DNA of 32,000 nucleotides from Candidatus Thorarchaeota archaeon (lineage in GTDB: Archaea > Asgardarchaeota > Heimdallarchaeia > Hodarchaeales > Hodarchaeaceae): NCBI GenBank assembly GCA_048882505.1, contig JBHLRO010000002.1:420001-452000 (forward strand). Direction: 5' to 3'. Below the pieces are notes generated by a model. It did no database searches. It was not told the DNA's origin and saw only the letters and a program-made list of their open reading frames with translations. The position numbers and the translations under genes were made by a program. Position 1 is the stretch's first letter. Every line of letters begins with the position of its first letter. Below, one piece after another: positions 7,256-31,698 of the stretch.

Positions 7256-7702
7256 TCATTTGTGATCCAATTTTATATGCTTCAGTTCAATGCCTGCGGA
7301 TCGGGCAGCATCAAAAATCCGATCATCATGATAAAATTCACCATAGACGACTTTTGTTATTCCTGCATTCGCCAATAACTTGAAACACGTCCAACAAGGC
7401 GATGCCGTTATATAGATCTCTGCCTTTTCCACGGTAACACCATTTTTTGCAGCCTGGGCAATAGCATTAGATTCTGCATGAACTGTTCTCACGCAATGCT
7501 TTCCCGTCTCGTCCATCATGTGACCCACATCATCACAATGAGCCAGGCCACGAATAGAACCATTATACCCCGTGGAAAGAATGGTTTTATCGCGAACAAT
7601 AACAGCACCAATATTCTTTCTATCGCAGGTAGCACGTGTAGCCACTTGATGAGCTATTCGCATGAAATAATGTTCCCATGTGTTTCTAGGTTTTTTCTCC
7701 AT
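7256..7702 (-). CDS. dCMP deaminase / ComEB family zinc-dependent deaminase
   Basis: HAE (HAESNAIAQAA) and PCxxC (SPCWTC) zinc motifs. N-terminal ATRATCDRKNIGAVIVRD and STGYNG segments are typical of the family. Confidence 0.92.
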   Translation of the reverse strand: MEKKPRNTWEHYFMRIAHQVATRATCDRKNIGAVIVRDKTILSTGYNGSIRGLAHCDDVGHMMDETGKHCVRTVHAESNAIAQAAKNGVTVEKAEIYITASPCWTCFKLLANAGITKVVYGEFYHDDRIFDAARSAGIELKHIKLDHK

Positions 7703-8516: not shown

Positions 8517-8577
8517 GTCATTTAAGGAAATGGAATCATAATCTAAGGTGCAGACGAGTTCGAAGGGATGCCAATCA

Positions 8578-10569
8578 ATGGGTTCGGCAACTAAATCTCG
8601 AAATAAAGTGGAAGAAATCAAGAAGCTAGCCGATCAAATCCTTTTTCACAAAAAAAAGTACTATGACGGCGAACCTGTTATTTCTGATGAAGCTTATGAT
8701 TCACTTGAAGATAAACTTCGGAAACTTGATCCGACCAACCCCGTTCTGTTTATGGTGGGTAATAATGAAGCAGGAAAGGTGTTTCATGACCCCCCCATGC
8801 TTTCGAGCCAAAAAACAACGAGTATTGATGATGTCGTGAAATGGAGCGGGGGACGAGACCTCATGGTTGGAAATAAGATTGATGGAGTATCCTTATCATT
8901 AATCTATGAAAACGGTAGGCTTATCCAAGCGGCCACCCGTGGAAATGGTACCATGGGAGATGATACGACTATTGCAGCAATGAAAGTGACTGCCATCCCT
9001 AAATCGGTCCCTGAAATCACCCTTAGGCTCAATATCAGAGGGGAGCTATTTATGCGGCTCTCTGAATTCGCTCGTATTAAAAAAACGGAATCGGATCAGT
9101 ATAGCAGCCCGAGGAATCTAACAGCAGGGACCATAAAGCAAAAAGATCTTGGCTTACTGGATAAGCGAGTTCTTTCGTTTGGTGCGTTTGAACTCCTCGG
9201 ATTAAGGGATGAGGAAGCAACTCTGGAAGAGAAAGTTGATCTCTTGCTCGAATGGGGATTCGAAACCACCGAATTCAAACTGTTAAAGTCTCCCTCAAAA
9301 GAGTCTATCGAAGCCCTTTATCGGAACACGGTATCAGCACGAGGGAACCTTGATTTCGAAATAGACGGGTTAGTTCTAAAGTATAACGATGCCAAAGAAC
9401 GAGCCAACGCGGGCGCAACGGCTCATCATCCTCGATGGATGATGGCACTAAAATTCCGAAGTCAAGGAAAACTATCACAAGTTAACAGTATCACCTGGCA
9501 GGTTGGGAGATTAGGAACGATAACACCTGTGGCTGAATTGGAGCCAGTTGAAGTAATGGGAGCCGTTATCCAGAGAGCTACGCTACATAATGCTGATTTC
9601 CTAGAAAGCCTTGATGTTGCACCAGGAGATAGCGTCTGGGTTATCAGATCCGGCGATGTTATACCGAAAATCACTGAGGTGGTTGAAAAGGGCCCTAATA
9701 GCGTGTTACTGCCATCTCGATGCCCAAGCTGTGACTCAAAACTACGACGTGACGGTGTCAATTTGCTCTGCGCTAGCCCAATATGTCGCGACAGAGAAAT
9801 CCAACGAATCCGTCACTGGATTAAAATTACAGATATTAAAGGACTAGGCACCAAGAATGTTGCCAAATTGTATGACAACGAGCTGATAAGACATTTCGCA
9901 GACCTTTATGACAAAAACCTGACCGAGAGAAAACTGGTTTCATTATTAGGAAAAAACGGGTCCAAAATCTTCCAAAGTATTCAGGAGACTAAGAACATAC
10001 CCTTCCACCTGTTTCTTGCAGGTTTGGGCATTAAAACTTTAGGAAATCAGATGGCTAAAGTTCTCACAAAGCACTTTCCTACATACGAGGCCTTGAAAAA
10101 TGTAACTGCTGATCAGTTGATGGAAATAGAGGGGATTTCAGAGATCACCGCCAGGAAGATTCTTGAAGGGCTCCATGATCCCATGTTGGCTGATCACTTG
10201 CTTGAGAAGGGAGTAATGATTTCTGAAGGTCCGAAGATATCAAAGAGGGAGTCTCAATCCCCAACGCGACTAACGAATTTCTTTGAATCACAAGACAAGT
10301 CCCCAGAATACGAAATTCGATCTCAAGAACCAGAAAATTTAGAGGATTTACCCAAGGTTTATGTTACAGGTGCGATTCCTGGGATGACAAAGAAAGAAGT
10401 TCAAACTTTTCTAGAGCAACATAATTACGAATGGGCTGGAATATCAAAAAAACTAACGCTTCTCATCGTTGGGGAAAAACCAGGCAAGAATAAGCTAGAA
10501 AAAGCACAAAAATATGGTATACCTCAAAAATCCTGGGAAGATTTCATGAAAGAACTTCGCCAGCGATAA
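8578..10569 (+). CDS. ligA: NAD+-dependent DNA ligase
   Basis: Domain Ia YYDGEPVISDEAYD (NAD+ specificity), adenylation motif KIDG, ATRGNG, RGE, PRN, IDGLVLK, TWQVGRLG, ATLHN, RSGDVIP, Zn finger CPSC...CASPIC, HhH motifs and C-terminal BRCT (VYVTG...KLEKAQKYGIP). ATG 8578 preferred over GTG 8548. Confidence 0.97.
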   Translation: MGSATKSRNKVEEIKKLADQILFHKKKYYDGEPVISDEAYDSLEDKLRKLDPTNPVLFMVGNNEAGKVFHDPPMLSSQKTTSIDDVVKWSGGRDLMVGNKIDGVSLSLIYENGRLIQAATRGNGTMGDDTTIAAMKVTAIPKSVPEITLRLNIRGELFMRLSEFARIKKTESDQYSSPRNLTAGTIKQKDLGLLDKRVLSFGAFELLGLRDEEATLEEKVDLLLEWGFETTEFKLLKSPSKESIEALYRNTVSARGNLDFEIDGLVLKYNDAKERANAGATAHHPRWMMALKFRSQGKLSQVNSITWQVGRLGTITPVAELEPVEVMGAVIQRATLHNADFLESLDVAPGDSVWVIRSGDVIPKITEVVEKGPNSVLLPSRCPSCDSKLRRDGVNLLCASPICRDREIQRIRHWIKITDIKGLGTKNVAKLYDNELIRHFADLYDKNLTERKLVSLLGKNGSKIFQSIQETKNIPFHLFLAGLGIKTLGNQMAKVLTKHFPTYEALKNVTADQLMEIEGISEITARKILEGLHDPMLADHLLEKGVMISEGPKISKRESQSPTRLTNFFESQDKSPEYEIRSQEPENLEDLPKVYVTGAIPGMTKKEVQTFLEQHNYEWAGISKKLTLLIVGEKPGKNKLEKAQKYGIPQKSWEDFMKELRQR

Positions 10570-28246: not shown

Positions 28247-30118
28247 ATGAAGCCAGTCAAACCCTTATTCTACGATGAGTTTAGACTAGCCACCTTGGAA
28301 CAACGAGAAAACACGATATTGGCATATTTGGACGAGTTTTTCGATACAGAAAGTAACTACCTCGTCTATGGAAAATTGTTCTCTCACATGGTCACCGGTA
28401 GAATGGTCGAATTCGATGAAAGTCTGCGAGAGGCGTTTCATTTCCAAAAAAACTGTGCTCAAGTATTTAAGACTTTTTATAATCGAGTTTTGGCCCAGAC
28501 AAAGAACGAGCGGGAAGCAGAAGTTAGGACAGCAAAGATCATGTGGAACTTTATCGATGAAAATCGATTTGATGAAGCCCTTCGACTTTGTCTTCCTGAA
28601 GACGATCCAAACCAACAACTCAGTCCAGAAAAACAACAAAAATTCATTCACCAGTTTGATGTCGTTCAGAACCTGATAAGAATCGTACAGGGGGATGCCT
28701 TAAAATCTGCGCCTCCACTTGCCGCCTATCTCGAGGCTGTCAATTTTGCTACCAAAGCTTTGGATAACTACCGAATGAACAAAATCAAGAGAGCGGTGGC
28801 TTTTTTTGAGCTTGCTGTGAATAAAATCATTGAATTTGACCGCGAAACAGCTGCCAAGTTTGCAGGCCTAGTAGGGGCTCTACTTGCTCAGAAATCAGGC
28901 TTGGCATCAAAGGGCTTGTATTTTCTCCATCGAACCGAACGTTTACTGCAATCGATGAATGATACAGCCAAAAAACTCCAATTTCAGGAGATGGCCTCTT
29001 CATACTGGACTCTAGGATTGTTCACGAAAACTCTGGAGAAACTAATGCAGGAATTGGAGCTTCATAAAGAGGCAAGGTCATCTATCGGGATACAACAAAC
29101 CCAGGAACATTTGAGCATCTTTTACAGGAAGTTGAACCGATATTTAGATTCACATGATTGGGCTCTTCGGGCTTTAAGGTCGACAATTCAGGCCGAGGGG
29201 AAGGAGGATCCCACCAAGGGCTTTCGTTTCTTCCAGAGTAATGTGAATTACGCTAAATCATTGATCGGTCTTAATTCCTGGGATAAGGCAGAAAAACATC
29301 TAGACTATGCAGAAAAAGCCATAAGTCAACTAGAATTCACAACAACACCACGTCACCAAGCCCAACTTGAAATTGCACATTTAAAGGGACTGATCGCAAT
29401 ATTTACAGGTGATCTGGATAGTGCACAGAGCTATTTCGCCAAAAGGCTGACTTTTCCTCGCCAATTGGACCCAATACTCCCTTTGTACTCTCAGTTTTTG
29501 CGATCTGAGGCGATGATGTATCGTAATAAACGTGACTTTCCGAAAGCTATTGAAACTCTCCAACCTTTGTTTCAGGAAAAGCATGCTGTAAATCCTCAGA
29601 ATGTAGCCCTTCTTTCGGAATTGCTGGTAATGCATTCTCACGCAAGGGAGGCACTGAGACTTCTCAAACATGCCCTAGATCTTTTGAATTCCAATTGGAC
29701 CTCCATCCATACACAGTCACAGATCTATCAAAGCATAGCTTATGTTTATCTCTTAACAGGCGAATTCGAAAAAGCATCACAATGGTATCAGAGTTCCCTT
29801 GAAATAAATACTACTGATCTATCGGATCTCCGAATATCCCTTGATTCTCACATGAATTTGGCGTACATGGCAATAGAAGGACACAATAACATCGAACTGG
29901 CAACAAGACATTGCACGACCGTTGAGGAATATGCATCGGCTTCAGGATCAATCAGCGCGATTCTTGACGCTGGATTGCTTCGTGCCTATATTCTCAAACA
30001 TCAGGGCAACGACGAAGCCACGGAACGGATGATTCAACGTGTGGCCAATGAGGCCAATGGGTTTCGGATCAGCTATATCCAAGAAAAAGCAAAATTCCTT
30101 CTAAGCCATTTAACTTAA
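28247..30118 (+). CDS. TPR-like alpha-solenoid protein
   Basis: TPR-like helix pairs such as SIAYVYLLTGEFEKASQWYQSSLEI and AMMYRNKRDFPKAIETLQ. ATG 28247 preferred over TTG 28223. Stop overlaps the rfcL stop (TTAA at 30115-30118). Confidence 0.8.
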   Translation: MKPVKPLFYDEFRLATLEQRENTILAYLDEFFDTESNYLVYGKLFSHMVTGRMVEFDESLREAFHFQKNCAQVFKTFYNRVLAQTKNEREAEVRTAKIMWNFIDENRFDEALRLCLPEDDPNQQLSPEKQQKFIHQFDVVQNLIRIVQGDALKSAPPLAAYLEAVNFATKALDNYRMNKIKRAVAFFELAVNKIIEFDRETAAKFAGLVGALLAQKSGLASKGLYFLHRTERLLQSMNDTAKKLQFQEMASSYWTLGLFTKTLEKLMQELELHKEARSSIGIQQTQEHLSIFYRKLNRYLDSHDWALRALRSTIQAEGKEDPTKGFRFFQSNVNYAKSLIGLNSWDKAEKHLDYAEKAISQLEFTTTPRHQAQLEIAHLKGLIAIFTGDLDSAQSYFAKRLTFPRQLDPILPLYSQFLRSEAMMYRNKRDFPKAIETLQPLFQEKHAVNPQNVALLSELLVMHSHAREALRLLKHALDLLNSNWTSIHTQSQIYQSIAYVYLLTGEFEKASQWYQSSLEINTTDLSDLRISLDSHMNLAYMAIEGHNNIELATRHCTTVEEYASASGSISAILDAGLLRAYILKHQGNDEATERMIQRVANEANGFRISYIQEKAKFLLSHLT

Positions 30119-31698
30119 ATTTCCGATGAGAAAAAATCAGTGAGTGATTTTTCCTTTTTCTTTGCCCTTTTCTTCTTCTTTTTACGATTTTCATGGCTTG
30201 TTGGAGGTTGTGAGTTTTCTAAGTTCTTGTCATCAGTTGATAGATGGTTATTATCGATTCTGTTTGTTTCTTGTATAGTCCCAGGTTTTTGATCCGAGAT
30301 TTTTTGCTGGCTGGTAATTTCTTGCAAGATAGTTGGATCAATCTCCCGCCTGATGACCCTTTCTACTGAAGGATAAAGTGTGCGGATGATCTTCTTTATT
30401 TCACGGTTTGTCTGTTTTTGTTTGCAGAGGTGATCAATCTCTCCATTCCATACTATTCTCATCTGGCGTTTTCCAGGCGCAATATCAAAGAATCGAAAAT
30501 CGAGCGCAAGATGCGCCGCCATTTCAGCGTTATTTTCGAAAATAACCTTTATATATGGAAGATAAATGTTCAAAGCATCTTTTTCTGAGATATTACATAC
30601 TCTAGCGACTTTTAACGCAATTTTCCTTTTTCTTCTTAATCTGGAAAGGAGGATCCAATATTGTGGCACCTGAAGACGAAAATCAGGAAATGTAGGGGAG
30701 TTCTCATGGGATGGAACGAAGTTTGCCAAATTTCGCGTGATAAAATTATAAAAATAGCTCAGTTGGTTCCAAAACCGTTGTCTTTGGGCACGTGTTAAGG
30801 CTAAATCAGCCTGTGCGAGGATGTCATAGATCTTGGCAATGGTGGTGTAGCTGTTTCGGGGCAGATAATCAATGGCGAGATCGCGGAGAATAAGCAGTAA
30901 TTTACTGTAGGTCATATCACTAAGTTGACGAGTCAATTCGTGCGCTTTATCACCGTCGCGTGCAATAAAAATGGTATCAAGAAATTCCTTGGTAGCAACC
31001 ATTTGATCTCGAAAAGAAAGCACGCTAATATCGTCTGGTGTGATCTGACTTCTTTCCGATGCGATTGTTTGAAAAGAATTGATCGATCCTCTGATGTCAT
31101 TTTGGCTTTTTTCGATAATATCTAGAAGAACTTCATCCGAGGCTTGAATCAGTTCTGTATCAGCTATTCTTCTCAATATACGTGCGATTTCTTGCGGTGA
31201 CGGGTTTTCAAATTCCCGAAGTTCACAATGTCTTAGGAGGCTCTTGAATTTCTGTGGAGATACATCATTGGCTGTTAGAATTATTGGAACACGGGTTTGT
31301 TCAATGATTTCAATAATTTCTCGGATTCCGCCTCTATCTGCAGTCCCGCTCAACCCGTCAATTTCGTCAATAAGCAAAATTTGCCCAATTTTGGCTTCCA
31401 AATCTTCCTTGAGAGATCTAGAAGAAGAAGCCTGACGGATGGCTTTCAAAGATCTTTTATTACGTTTATCACTTGCATTTACCATGACAACATCGAAATT
31501 CAATGCCGAGGCAATGGCTAGGATTGAGCTGGTCTTTCCGATGCCAGGTGGACCATGCAATAAGAGGGCCTTTTTTTCTAGCTTTTCCCGTAGGGATGGA
31601 TTACGAAAGCGATTTAAATATACCACAATAGAATTAACGCTCTTCTCATTCCCCACAATTTCAGAACGCCGTGTTGGGGCATACTTCTGAACCCACAA
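30115..31698 (-). CDS. rfcL: Replication factor C large subunit
   Basis: WVQKYAP (RFC box II), Walker A GPPGIGKTS, NASDKR, Walker B LLIDEIDG, and a basic tail ending in the PIP-type motif EKSLTDFF. TTG start after GAGG, directly downstream of rfcS. Confidence 0.95.
   Translation of the reverse strand: MWVQKYAPTRRSEIVGNEKSVNSIVVYLNRFRNPSLREKLEKKALLLHGPPGIGKTSSILAIASALNFDVVMVNASDKRNKRSLKAIRQASSSRSLKEDLEAKIGQILLIDEIDGLSGTADRGGIREIIEIIEQTRVPIILTANDVSPQKFKSLLRHCELREFENPSPQEIARILRRIADTELIQASDEVLLDIIEKSQNDIRGSINSFQTIASERSQITPDDISVLSFRDQMVATKEFLDTIFIARDGDKAHELTRQLSDMTYSKLLLILRDLAIDYLPRNSYTTIAKIYDILAQADLALTRAQRQRFWNQLSYFYNFITRNLANFVPSHENSPTFPDFRLQVPQYWILLSRLRRKRKIALKVARVCNISEKDALNIYLPYIKVIFENNAEMAAHLALDFRFFDIAPGKRQMRIVWNGEIDHLCKQKQTNREIKKIIRTLYPSVERVIRREIDPTILQEITSQQKISDQKPGTIQETNRIDNNHLSTDDKNLENSQPPTSHENRKKKKKRAKKKEKSLTDFFSSEI

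Follow-up and report, generated by a model that had tools for sequence, protein, structure and literature searches.

How would a DNA ligase of bacterial type be coupled to the replication machinery of an archaeon? This question is raised by a stretch of 32,000 nucleotides (hereafter the window) from Candidatus Thorarchaeota archaeon, a member of the Hodarchaeales (assembly GCA_048882505.1, contig JBHLRO010000002.1, positions 420,001 to 452,000; the assembly of 4.3 Mb in 83 contigs is 94.6% complete). The window encodes an NAD+-dependent DNA ligase, LigA, which carries a short hydrophobic motif, QSPTRLTNFF, in the linker between its helix-hairpin-helix (HhH) and BRCT domains. From sequence comparisons and structural models we consider this motif to be probably a functional PCNA-interacting peptide (PIP), non-canonical and archaeal in style, which would have arisen in the expanded disordered linker of a bacterial-type ligase. 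It is textbook knowledge that PIP boxes recruit proteins to PCNA and that some archaea have NAD+ ligases of bacterial type. We found no report of a PIP box on an NAD+-dependent ligase in the searchable, incomplete literature.

The ligase and its linker

The ligA gene begins with a GTG codon; in its database form (P0003) the protein starts at M11 (nt 8578) and counts 663 residues, and residue numbers given here refer to the longer form (coordinates of all features are collected in Table 1). The domain order is Ia, adenylation, OB, Cys4 zinc finger, HhH, linker and BRCT, with Pfam matches to the adenylation domain (PF01653, 1.7e-47), the OB fold (PF03120, 1.5e-29) and HHH_2 (1.3e-12). The KxDG adenylation motif reads K110-I-D112-G113, and in an alignment of 50 orthologues K110, D112 and G113 are invariant, as are the zinc-finger residues C392, C395, C408 and C413. 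Domain Ia contains the NAD+-specifying Y-[YH]...D-x-x-Y-D signature (..KKYYDGEPVISDEAYD..), whose residues Y38, Y39, D47, Y50 and D51 are nearly invariant in the same alignment, and the AlphaFold2 (AF2) model places helices of this domain at 12-39 and 47-60. By correspondence with E. coli LigA, we take these residues to be the ones that bind nicotinamide mononucleotide. The BRCT domain fell just under the Pfam threshold when the C-terminal 134 residues were searched (21.2 bits vs a cut-off of 21.3); precomputed PF00533 matches are present in many orthologues, and the AF2 model gives this region a folded beta-alpha pattern, with a mean predicted local distance difference test score (pLDDT) of 75-89 in blocks of 10 residues. 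The protein thus combines the features that define a bacterial-type LigA, namely KxDG with OB, the domain Ia signature, and Cys4 with HhH and BRCT. Since its catalytic and structural residues are invariant and the domain Ia signature nearly so, the enzyme appears to be active as an NAD+ ligase rather than a relic. Its best homologues come from metagenome-assembled genomes (MAGs) that their submitters annotated as Heimdallarchaeota, Hodarchaeales/Hodarchaeota and Kariarchaeaceae.

The initial annotation described a polar linker of about 45 residues before the BRCT domain, and we measured 46 between LLEKGV (551-556) and KVYVTG (603-608). It had also stated that the linkers of bacterial LigAs are shorter. 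This agrees with our comparison, in which the distance between the same anchors is 58 in the window LigA vs mostly 25-34 in distant LigA representatives, which carry no taxonomy labels; the linker is thus roughly 25-30 residues longer than in these more distant proteins. In the full-length AF2 model (50-row alignment, mean pLDDT 83.6) residues 562-599 have a pLDDT below 50, and the sole secondary structure predicted among them is a helix of four residues, 575-578.

This helix falls within the motif. QSPTRLTNFF lies exactly where it had been placed, and its core, P572-T-R-L575-T-N-F578-F579, was compared with the features of a canonical PIP box. The aliphatic position 4 is occupied by L575 and the aromatic positions 7 and 8 by F578 and F579, and the disordered segment, the short helix and the fit to the PCNA pocket are all found in silico (the AF2 and complex models), whereas the Gln of position 1 is absent from the window LigA. 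The annotation had called the box non-canonical for this reason, its Gln being displaced by two positions, and indeed P572 occupies position 1 and Q570 stands upstream. A basic patch precedes the motif; the K/R run at this place is much stronger in most orthologues. We therefore think that the motif is best called a non-canonical, archaeal-style PIP, as far as can be judged from its sequence and the models.

A loose core, [LM]xx[FYW][FWLIYV], arises in 5-10% of random strings of 46 residues and the strict LxxFF in about 0.5%. Since the loose core is so common, one occurrence of the motif is not significant alone, and the case rests on conservation.

Distribution of the motif among LigA proteins

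Across the 50 orthologues, which are 54-92% identical, the linker consensus is undefined at nearly all columns; L575 is the sole invariant position and F578 the sole one conserved at 90% or more. In a profile anchored on the motif, K/R are the commonest residues at positions -12 to -3 and G/T/S at -2 and -1, the Leu stands at 0, D/Q are commonest at +2, F/Y at +3 and I/L/F/W at +4, and small and acidic residues follow. Three residues ahead of the conserved Leu, at the site of the canonical Gln, most proteins of the clade have K, T or S. Leu was found at position 4 in 92 of 106 motif-anchored rows, although 21 of these are an artefact of a BRCT strand. Such false pattern matches came from the first strand of the BRCT domain (L-K-V-Y-V-T-G), from the strand after the HhH domain (V-K-I-F-Y) and, in short-linker proteins, from the HhH segment PLxRFLYALGI. 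The counts were corrected by eye: four proteins (P0047, P0081, P0055 and P0058) were assigned to the class with the motif in the linker, and 10 rows of the residual class to the class without a motif. After this correction, about 115 near full-length LigAs of the Heimdall type comprise some 82 with the motif in the linker, four with the motif at the C-terminus and 29 that lack it. The query clade (59 rows, support 100), taken from a tree calculated with the linker columns removed, has the motif in 58 rows, and one protein (P0085) carries two tandem motifs in its linker.

The four proteins with a C-terminal motif end, after the BRCT domain, in ..KKPDLEDFF (P0096), ..SARLTDYFEK (P0107, from genome G035), ..KSDLSKFF (P0116) and ..KKKGLNEFFS (P0121, from genome G033). 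All of them have short linkers, and they occupy three separate places in the tree, so that at least three changes are needed. As the same peptide is found at two unrelated positions, always in extra disordered sequence, this relocation argues for selection on a docking peptide itself rather than on linker structure.

The relocation also bears on a different explanation, in which the motif is an intramolecular helix packing on the BRCT or HhH domain and, for example, auto-regulating DNA binding or adenylation. A helix is indeed predicted at the motif, and the BRCT domain of E. coli LigA is known to be mobile and to modulate activity. However, the motif segment has a pLDDT of only 27-35 in the full-length AF2 model, with no confident packing, its flanks and its spacing to both domains vary freely (linkers of 43-76 residues), and a fixed contact would not tolerate the position after the BRCT domain seen in four proteins. 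We thus regard intramolecular packing as very unlikely.

Outside the Heimdall type the picture is different. The initial annotation had proposed to align archaeal with bacterial LigAs and to ask whether the motif is kept in the archaeal ones only. In our alignment the core L-x-x-F-[FLI] follows a basic run in most Heimdallarchaeia LigAs; it is neither absent from the close archaeal orthologues nor equally present among 143 distant LigA representatives (32-55% identical to the query, without taxonomy), in which it occurs twice, both times in fragments (43-55% identical to the query). In other Asgard families we found two further LigA lineages, one of 675-725 residues (Pfam 1e-85 to 1e-99) and a divergent one of 636-670 residues; none of the 20 proteins fetched from these two lineages has the motif in its linker or tail. 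Judging from these comparisons, the motif is specific to the Heimdall-type LigA lineage, and is apparently general neither to LigA nor to every LigA that is accompanied by PCNA. At least two further Asgard LigA lineages would imply several independent acquisitions. The proteins of these other lineages are encoded at loci L066-L085 (families f11, f14 and f23), and the lineage of 675-725 residues is very bacterial-like.

It could still be supposed that the motif is a functionless sequence which arose by chance in a low-complexity spacer and was inherited within the lineage, given the frequency of the loose core in random strings and the fact that shared ancestry inflates apparent conservation. 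Yet only the L and F columns have been kept, while their neighbours diverged among sequences as little as about 45% identical; at the C-terminus the motif has turned up anew and independently, and it is nearly confined to one lineage by the counts above (2/143 and 0/20). The conservation data argue strongly against such a chance origin, which we consider extremely improbable.

PCNA clients of the host and the predicted docking

If LigA has acquired a PIP, it should resemble the PIPs of its host. We scanned the six-frame open reading frames (ORFs) of the genome for a C-terminal [LIM]xx[FW][FWLIY] and searched the hits at or near the C-terminus against Pfam. Thirteen proteins have the C-terminal pattern [K/R]..[STG]-L-x-[DEQ]-F-[FL], and most are members of classical PCNA-client families. 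The large subunit of RFC (RFC-L), the clamp loader, is encoded in the window itself and carries near its end, as had been noted, EKSLTDFF (tail ..KSLTDFFSSEI; its C-terminus reads EKSLTDFFSSEI in short form and ...KKKEKSLTDFFSSEI to the stop in a longer one). The other tails are those of Fen1 (..RQSLDQFF), two copies of PolB (..RQNLNQFF and ..GQINLMEFFT), NreA (..QKRLTDFFNSSKFQ), a Y-family polymerase (..KTSLESFFS), UDG (..KKGLDRFLG), an HhH-GPD (EndoIII-like) glycosylase (..VPLESFFS), a SRAP (HMCES/YedK-like) protein (..KTTLSEFF), two N6/N4 DNA methyltransferases (..VKLSEFL and ..KTSLDQFL), a DUF72 protein (..RQYGLSEFFG) and a DUF4130 protein (..FASLDAFF). Several of these also lack a correctly placed Gln, and TRLTNFF of LigA differs from KRLTDFF of NreA at two positions. 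The working PIP of this host is thus, on the evidence of these tails, [K/R-rich]-[STG]-L-x-[DEQ]-F-[FL], in many cases with no Gln in the proper place, and P-T-R-L-T-N-F-F of LigA appears to fit it. The LT[ND]FF consensus that the initial annotation drew from LigA and RFC-L captured, in two proteins, a signal that is real and extends over the genome; as a consensus it was too narrow, the motif of the clade being [GST]-L-x-[DQ]-[FY]-[ILFW].

The same scan marks the methyltransferases and the SRAP, DUF72 and DUF4130 proteins (loci L005, L007, L006, L010 and L011, on other contigs) as candidate PCNA clients that had gone unrecognised.

The host PCNA is encoded on another contig. A model of its residues 1-258 (40-row alignment, without the acidic tail) with LigA 556-600 (50-row alignment) scored 0.68 (runs of 0.65, 0.68 and 0.68) vs 0.00 for the best of three controls; with an unrelated protein in place of either chain the score was 0.00. 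Among solved complexes 58 of 80 attain this mark, and among mismatched pairs 2 of 110, a benchmark that is approximate here since our own alignments were used. The runs share at least 88% of contacts, with a partner pLDDT of at least 46. LigA 570-580 was placed against PCNA 43, 46-50, 130, 134-135, 161, 208-213, 235-236, 252 and 254-257. This predicted interface is the classical PIP site, formed by the hydrophobic pocket, the interdomain connecting loop and the C-terminal strand, so that the peptide-PCNA modelling suggested in the initial annotation puts the motif in the canonical pocket with null controls. The score shows that the peptide looks like a PIP to the model, not that it binds, and may stem from the memory of the model, since many structures of PIP-PCNA complexes have been solved.

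A partner other than PCNA is nevertheless conceivable. The L-x-x-F-[FLI] core could dock on the second, divergent PCNA_N-only protein encoded in this genome (L002), on RPA, on a polymerase subunit or on a repair scaffold; PIP-like motifs are known to overlap the Rev1- and Mlh1-binding motifs of eukaryotes, and the canonical Gln is missing from LigA. We find such a partner unlikely, as the motif matches the tails of host Fen1, PolB and RFC-L, whose established partner is PCNA, and the model places it in the PIP pocket of the bona fide PCNA, with a score that fell to 0.00 when either chain was swapped. As to L002 itself, it could be a heterotrimer partner of PCNA or a paralogue resembling a checkpoint clamp.

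If the motif of LigA is a PIP, the K/R-rich stretch and the T-R-L-T-N-F-F core would form a short helix, and L575, F578 and F579 would enter the hydrophobic pocket beneath the interdomain connecting loop, while residues upstream of the core would pair with the C-terminal strand of PCNA (LAPMQ, 252-257). The flexible linker would let the tethered core of the enzyme (Ia, adenylation, OB, Zn and HhH) close around a nick adjacent to the clamp. In this way LigA would join the PCNA tool-belt beside Fen1 and PolB for the sealing of Okazaki fragments and repair patches. The data show the anatomy of LigA, the conservation of its motif, the resemblance to host PIPs, the predicted disorder and the in silico dock; that LigA would bind PCNA, have its ligation stimulated by the clamp and act in replication is inferred.

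Past the LAPMQ strand, the PCNA of the Hodarchaeales type (39 homologues, alignment A1) continues into a conserved, D/E-rich C-terminal tail of some 30 residues, and the PIP-bearing clients, LigA among them, have K/R runs just upstream of their motifs. The acidic tail and the basic runs suggest an electrostatic second contact.

The surroundings of ligA in the window are listed in Table 1; a tRNA scan of the window found none.

Table 1. Features of the window and related genes of the same genome (numbers after family names are E values)
Feature	Position	Strand	Remarks
dCMP/cytidine deaminase	7256-7702	-	PF00383, 1.1e-26; ~850 bp upstream of ligA, opposite strand; nucleotide metabolism
ligA, NAD+-dependent DNA ligase	8548-10569	+	ORF with start at 8548; 673 aa (P0002)
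HhH-BRCT linker	10216-10353	+	residues 557-602; polar, predicted disordered
Basic patch K563-I-S-K-R567	10234-10248	+	upstream of the motif
QSPTRLTNFF	10255-10284	+	residues 570-579
PIP-box-like core	10261-10284	+	8-residue frame
BRCT domain, C-terminal	10354-10566	+	residues 603-673; PF00533, E=3.6e-4
ORF, 753 aa	10839-13100	+	directly downstream of ligA; hydrophobic N-terminus; no Pfam family at E up to 0.001
ORF, 650 aa	19376-21328	-	no Pfam family at E up to 0.001
RFC large subunit (RFC-L)	30115-31698	-	AAA, 5.5e-16; weak sub-threshold RFC1-like lid matches
EKSLTDFF of RFC-L	30130-30153	-	
PCNA, contig C67	L001:1489-2361		PCNA_N and PCNA_C; 290 aa, D/E-rich tail
Divergent PCNA-like protein, contig C11	L002:970-1812	-	PCNA_N only, weak (4.2e-5); 280 aa
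Divergent ATP ligase, outside the window	G000:C2 ~121,800-123,750 (L003:1057-2997)	-	646 aa; the only ATP-dependent ligase of the host

Ligase content of Heimdallarchaeia and comparison with known systems

We examined the ligases of 70 genomes of the class, each at least 80% complete, and found LigA in 40 of them. In eight LigA genomes, which are 80-93% complete (G005, G032, G034, G035, G042, G045, G047 and G048), no ATP-dependent ligase was detected by family or protein search, and in seven of these eight LigA bears the motif. A further four, the host (G000) and G046, G051 and G033, have LigA together with only a divergent ATP ligase of 640-666 residues, which shares 25-28% identity with canonical Lig1. 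In the genus of the host, one closed genome (G049) has canonical Lig1 (560 aa) and no LigA. Every genome devoid of LigA holds an ATP-dependent ligase, G058 as a contig-end fragment only; protein-level searches revealed such fragments of Lig1 in G041 and G058. This complementary pattern would fit a PCNA-coupled, replication-competent LigA. It is weak evidence, because the genomes are incomplete MAGs that are not phylogenetically independent.

The divergent ATP ligase of the host has a Pfam match to the adenylation domain only, is 25% identical to the 560-aa Lig1 of the same genus and finds its best PDB match at 1e-21. The same form is also present in G046, G051, G033 and G057, and its N-terminal part of about 300 residues is strongly conserved. 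An N-terminal sequence, L-D-L-N-S-Y-F, was considered as a PIP and rejected, as the block that contains it is conserved over its whole length in five homologues and is probably folded.

Several observations weigh against a functional PIP in LigA and have to be set beside the data that favour it. The Gln of position 1 is replaced by P572, and position 8 is usually I or L in the orthologues instead of an aromatic residue, although archaeal PIPs typically have such a non-aromatic position 8. Given the promiscuity of PIP-like peptides, another partner is conceivable. The motif is missing from about 29 LigAs of the Heimdall type, among them most of genus g9, which means that it is not required for LigA function. 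Among the genomes in which no ATP-dependent ligase was detected, G032 (84% complete) is an exception with a motif-less LigA. The 10 genomes with a motif-less LigA and Lig1 all belong to one genus, and the genomes are mostly MAGs of 80-95% completeness. An association between the motif and the loss of canonical Lig1 (Fisher p = 0.027) was therefore not relied on, being phylogenetically non-independent.

The ligase content permits a broader but tentative reading, which we hold to be somewhat doubtful: in several Heimdallarchaeia lineages a PIP-bearing LigA may have taken the place of the ancestral ATP-dependent Lig1 and may now seal Okazaki fragments on a eukaryote-like replisome built around PCNA, with the repeated gain of a docking peptide, in the linker or in the C-terminal tail, as the enabling step. 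The lineages concerned are possibly those of the host genome and of the G042/G045/G047/G048, G005, G034 and G035 types. The initial annotation proposed that a horizontally acquired ligase had been grafted onto the PCNA machinery. Docking on PCNA is supported in silico, as predicted binding; transfer from a bacterial donor is putative, since the sister sequences carry no taxonomy.

PIP boxes are known to recruit ATP-dependent ligases to PCNA, as in human LIG1, where the box is N-terminal, and in archaeal Lig1 of Sulfolobus and Pyrococcus. Like these, the window LigA would be tethered to PCNA by a hydrophobic peptide, short and lying beyond its catalytic domains or on their margin, and its docking is predicted in the same pocket under the interdomain connecting loop. 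Unlike these ATP-dependent enzymes, which consist of a DNA-binding domain, a nucleotidyltransferase (NTase) domain and an OB domain, it has the architecture of an NAD+ LigA (Ia, NTase, OB, Zn, HhH and BRCT), an internal motif in a linker and no canonical Gln. The recruitment of replicative ligases to PCNA by PIPs is discussed in PMC6212786, as is the nearest published analogy: T4 DNA ligase binds the gp45 clamp via a loop insertion with a hydrophobic LDFLF motif (PMC6212786). The T4 enzyme evolved its clamp-binding hydrophobic motif independently, in a flexible segment, instead of inheriting it, as we propose for LigA. The T4 insertion belongs to the NTase domain and contacts a phage clamp as an alpha-helix. 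In the NAD+ ligase the motif occupies the pre-BRCT linker or, in some proteins, the C-terminal tail, and its predicted partner is the PCNA of the cell.

For E. coli LigA, whose structure is available as 2OWO, an interaction with the beta clamp was reportedly described by Lopez de Saro and O'Donnell in 2001. The window LigA shares its domain architecture and catalytic residues, and both would be ligases working with a sliding clamp; however, docking on the bacterial beta clamp involves another motif and another mode of binding. The 143 distant representatives likewise differ from the window LigA by a short HhH-BRCT connector which, save in two fragments, has no motif. The 2OWO structure is cited in PMC6212786.

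An NAD+ ligase in another archaeal phylum offers a further comparison. LigN of Haloferax volcanii was horizontally acquired and has an essential function in common with LigA, which in that organism is the ATP ligase (PMC7776575, PMC1684257), a redundancy of NAD+ and ATP ligases which parallels the complementary presence and absence in Heimdallarchaeia. Unlike for the window LigA, no PCNA motif is reported for LigN in these papers, on which, and not on its sequence, our comparison is based (PMC7776575, PMC1684257).

Among the candidate PCNA clients that emerge from the host PIP consensus, a DNA methyltransferase tethered to the clamp would have a eukaryotic parallel in DNMT1. As for LigA, since several genomes seem to be devoid of canonical Lig1, NAD+-dependent Okazaki ligation on PCNA is a testable idea. 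Heimdallarchaeia include the Hodarchaeales, which have been proposed as the closest archaeal relatives of eukaryotes, and the finding bears on the plasticity of the replisome in this class. If the peptide binds PCNA, it would be a clean natural example of a horizontally acquired enzyme, taken from another replication system and integrated via a docking peptide of 5-8 residues in a disordered segment, and the same solution at two positions in one protein family strengthens the case for such integration.

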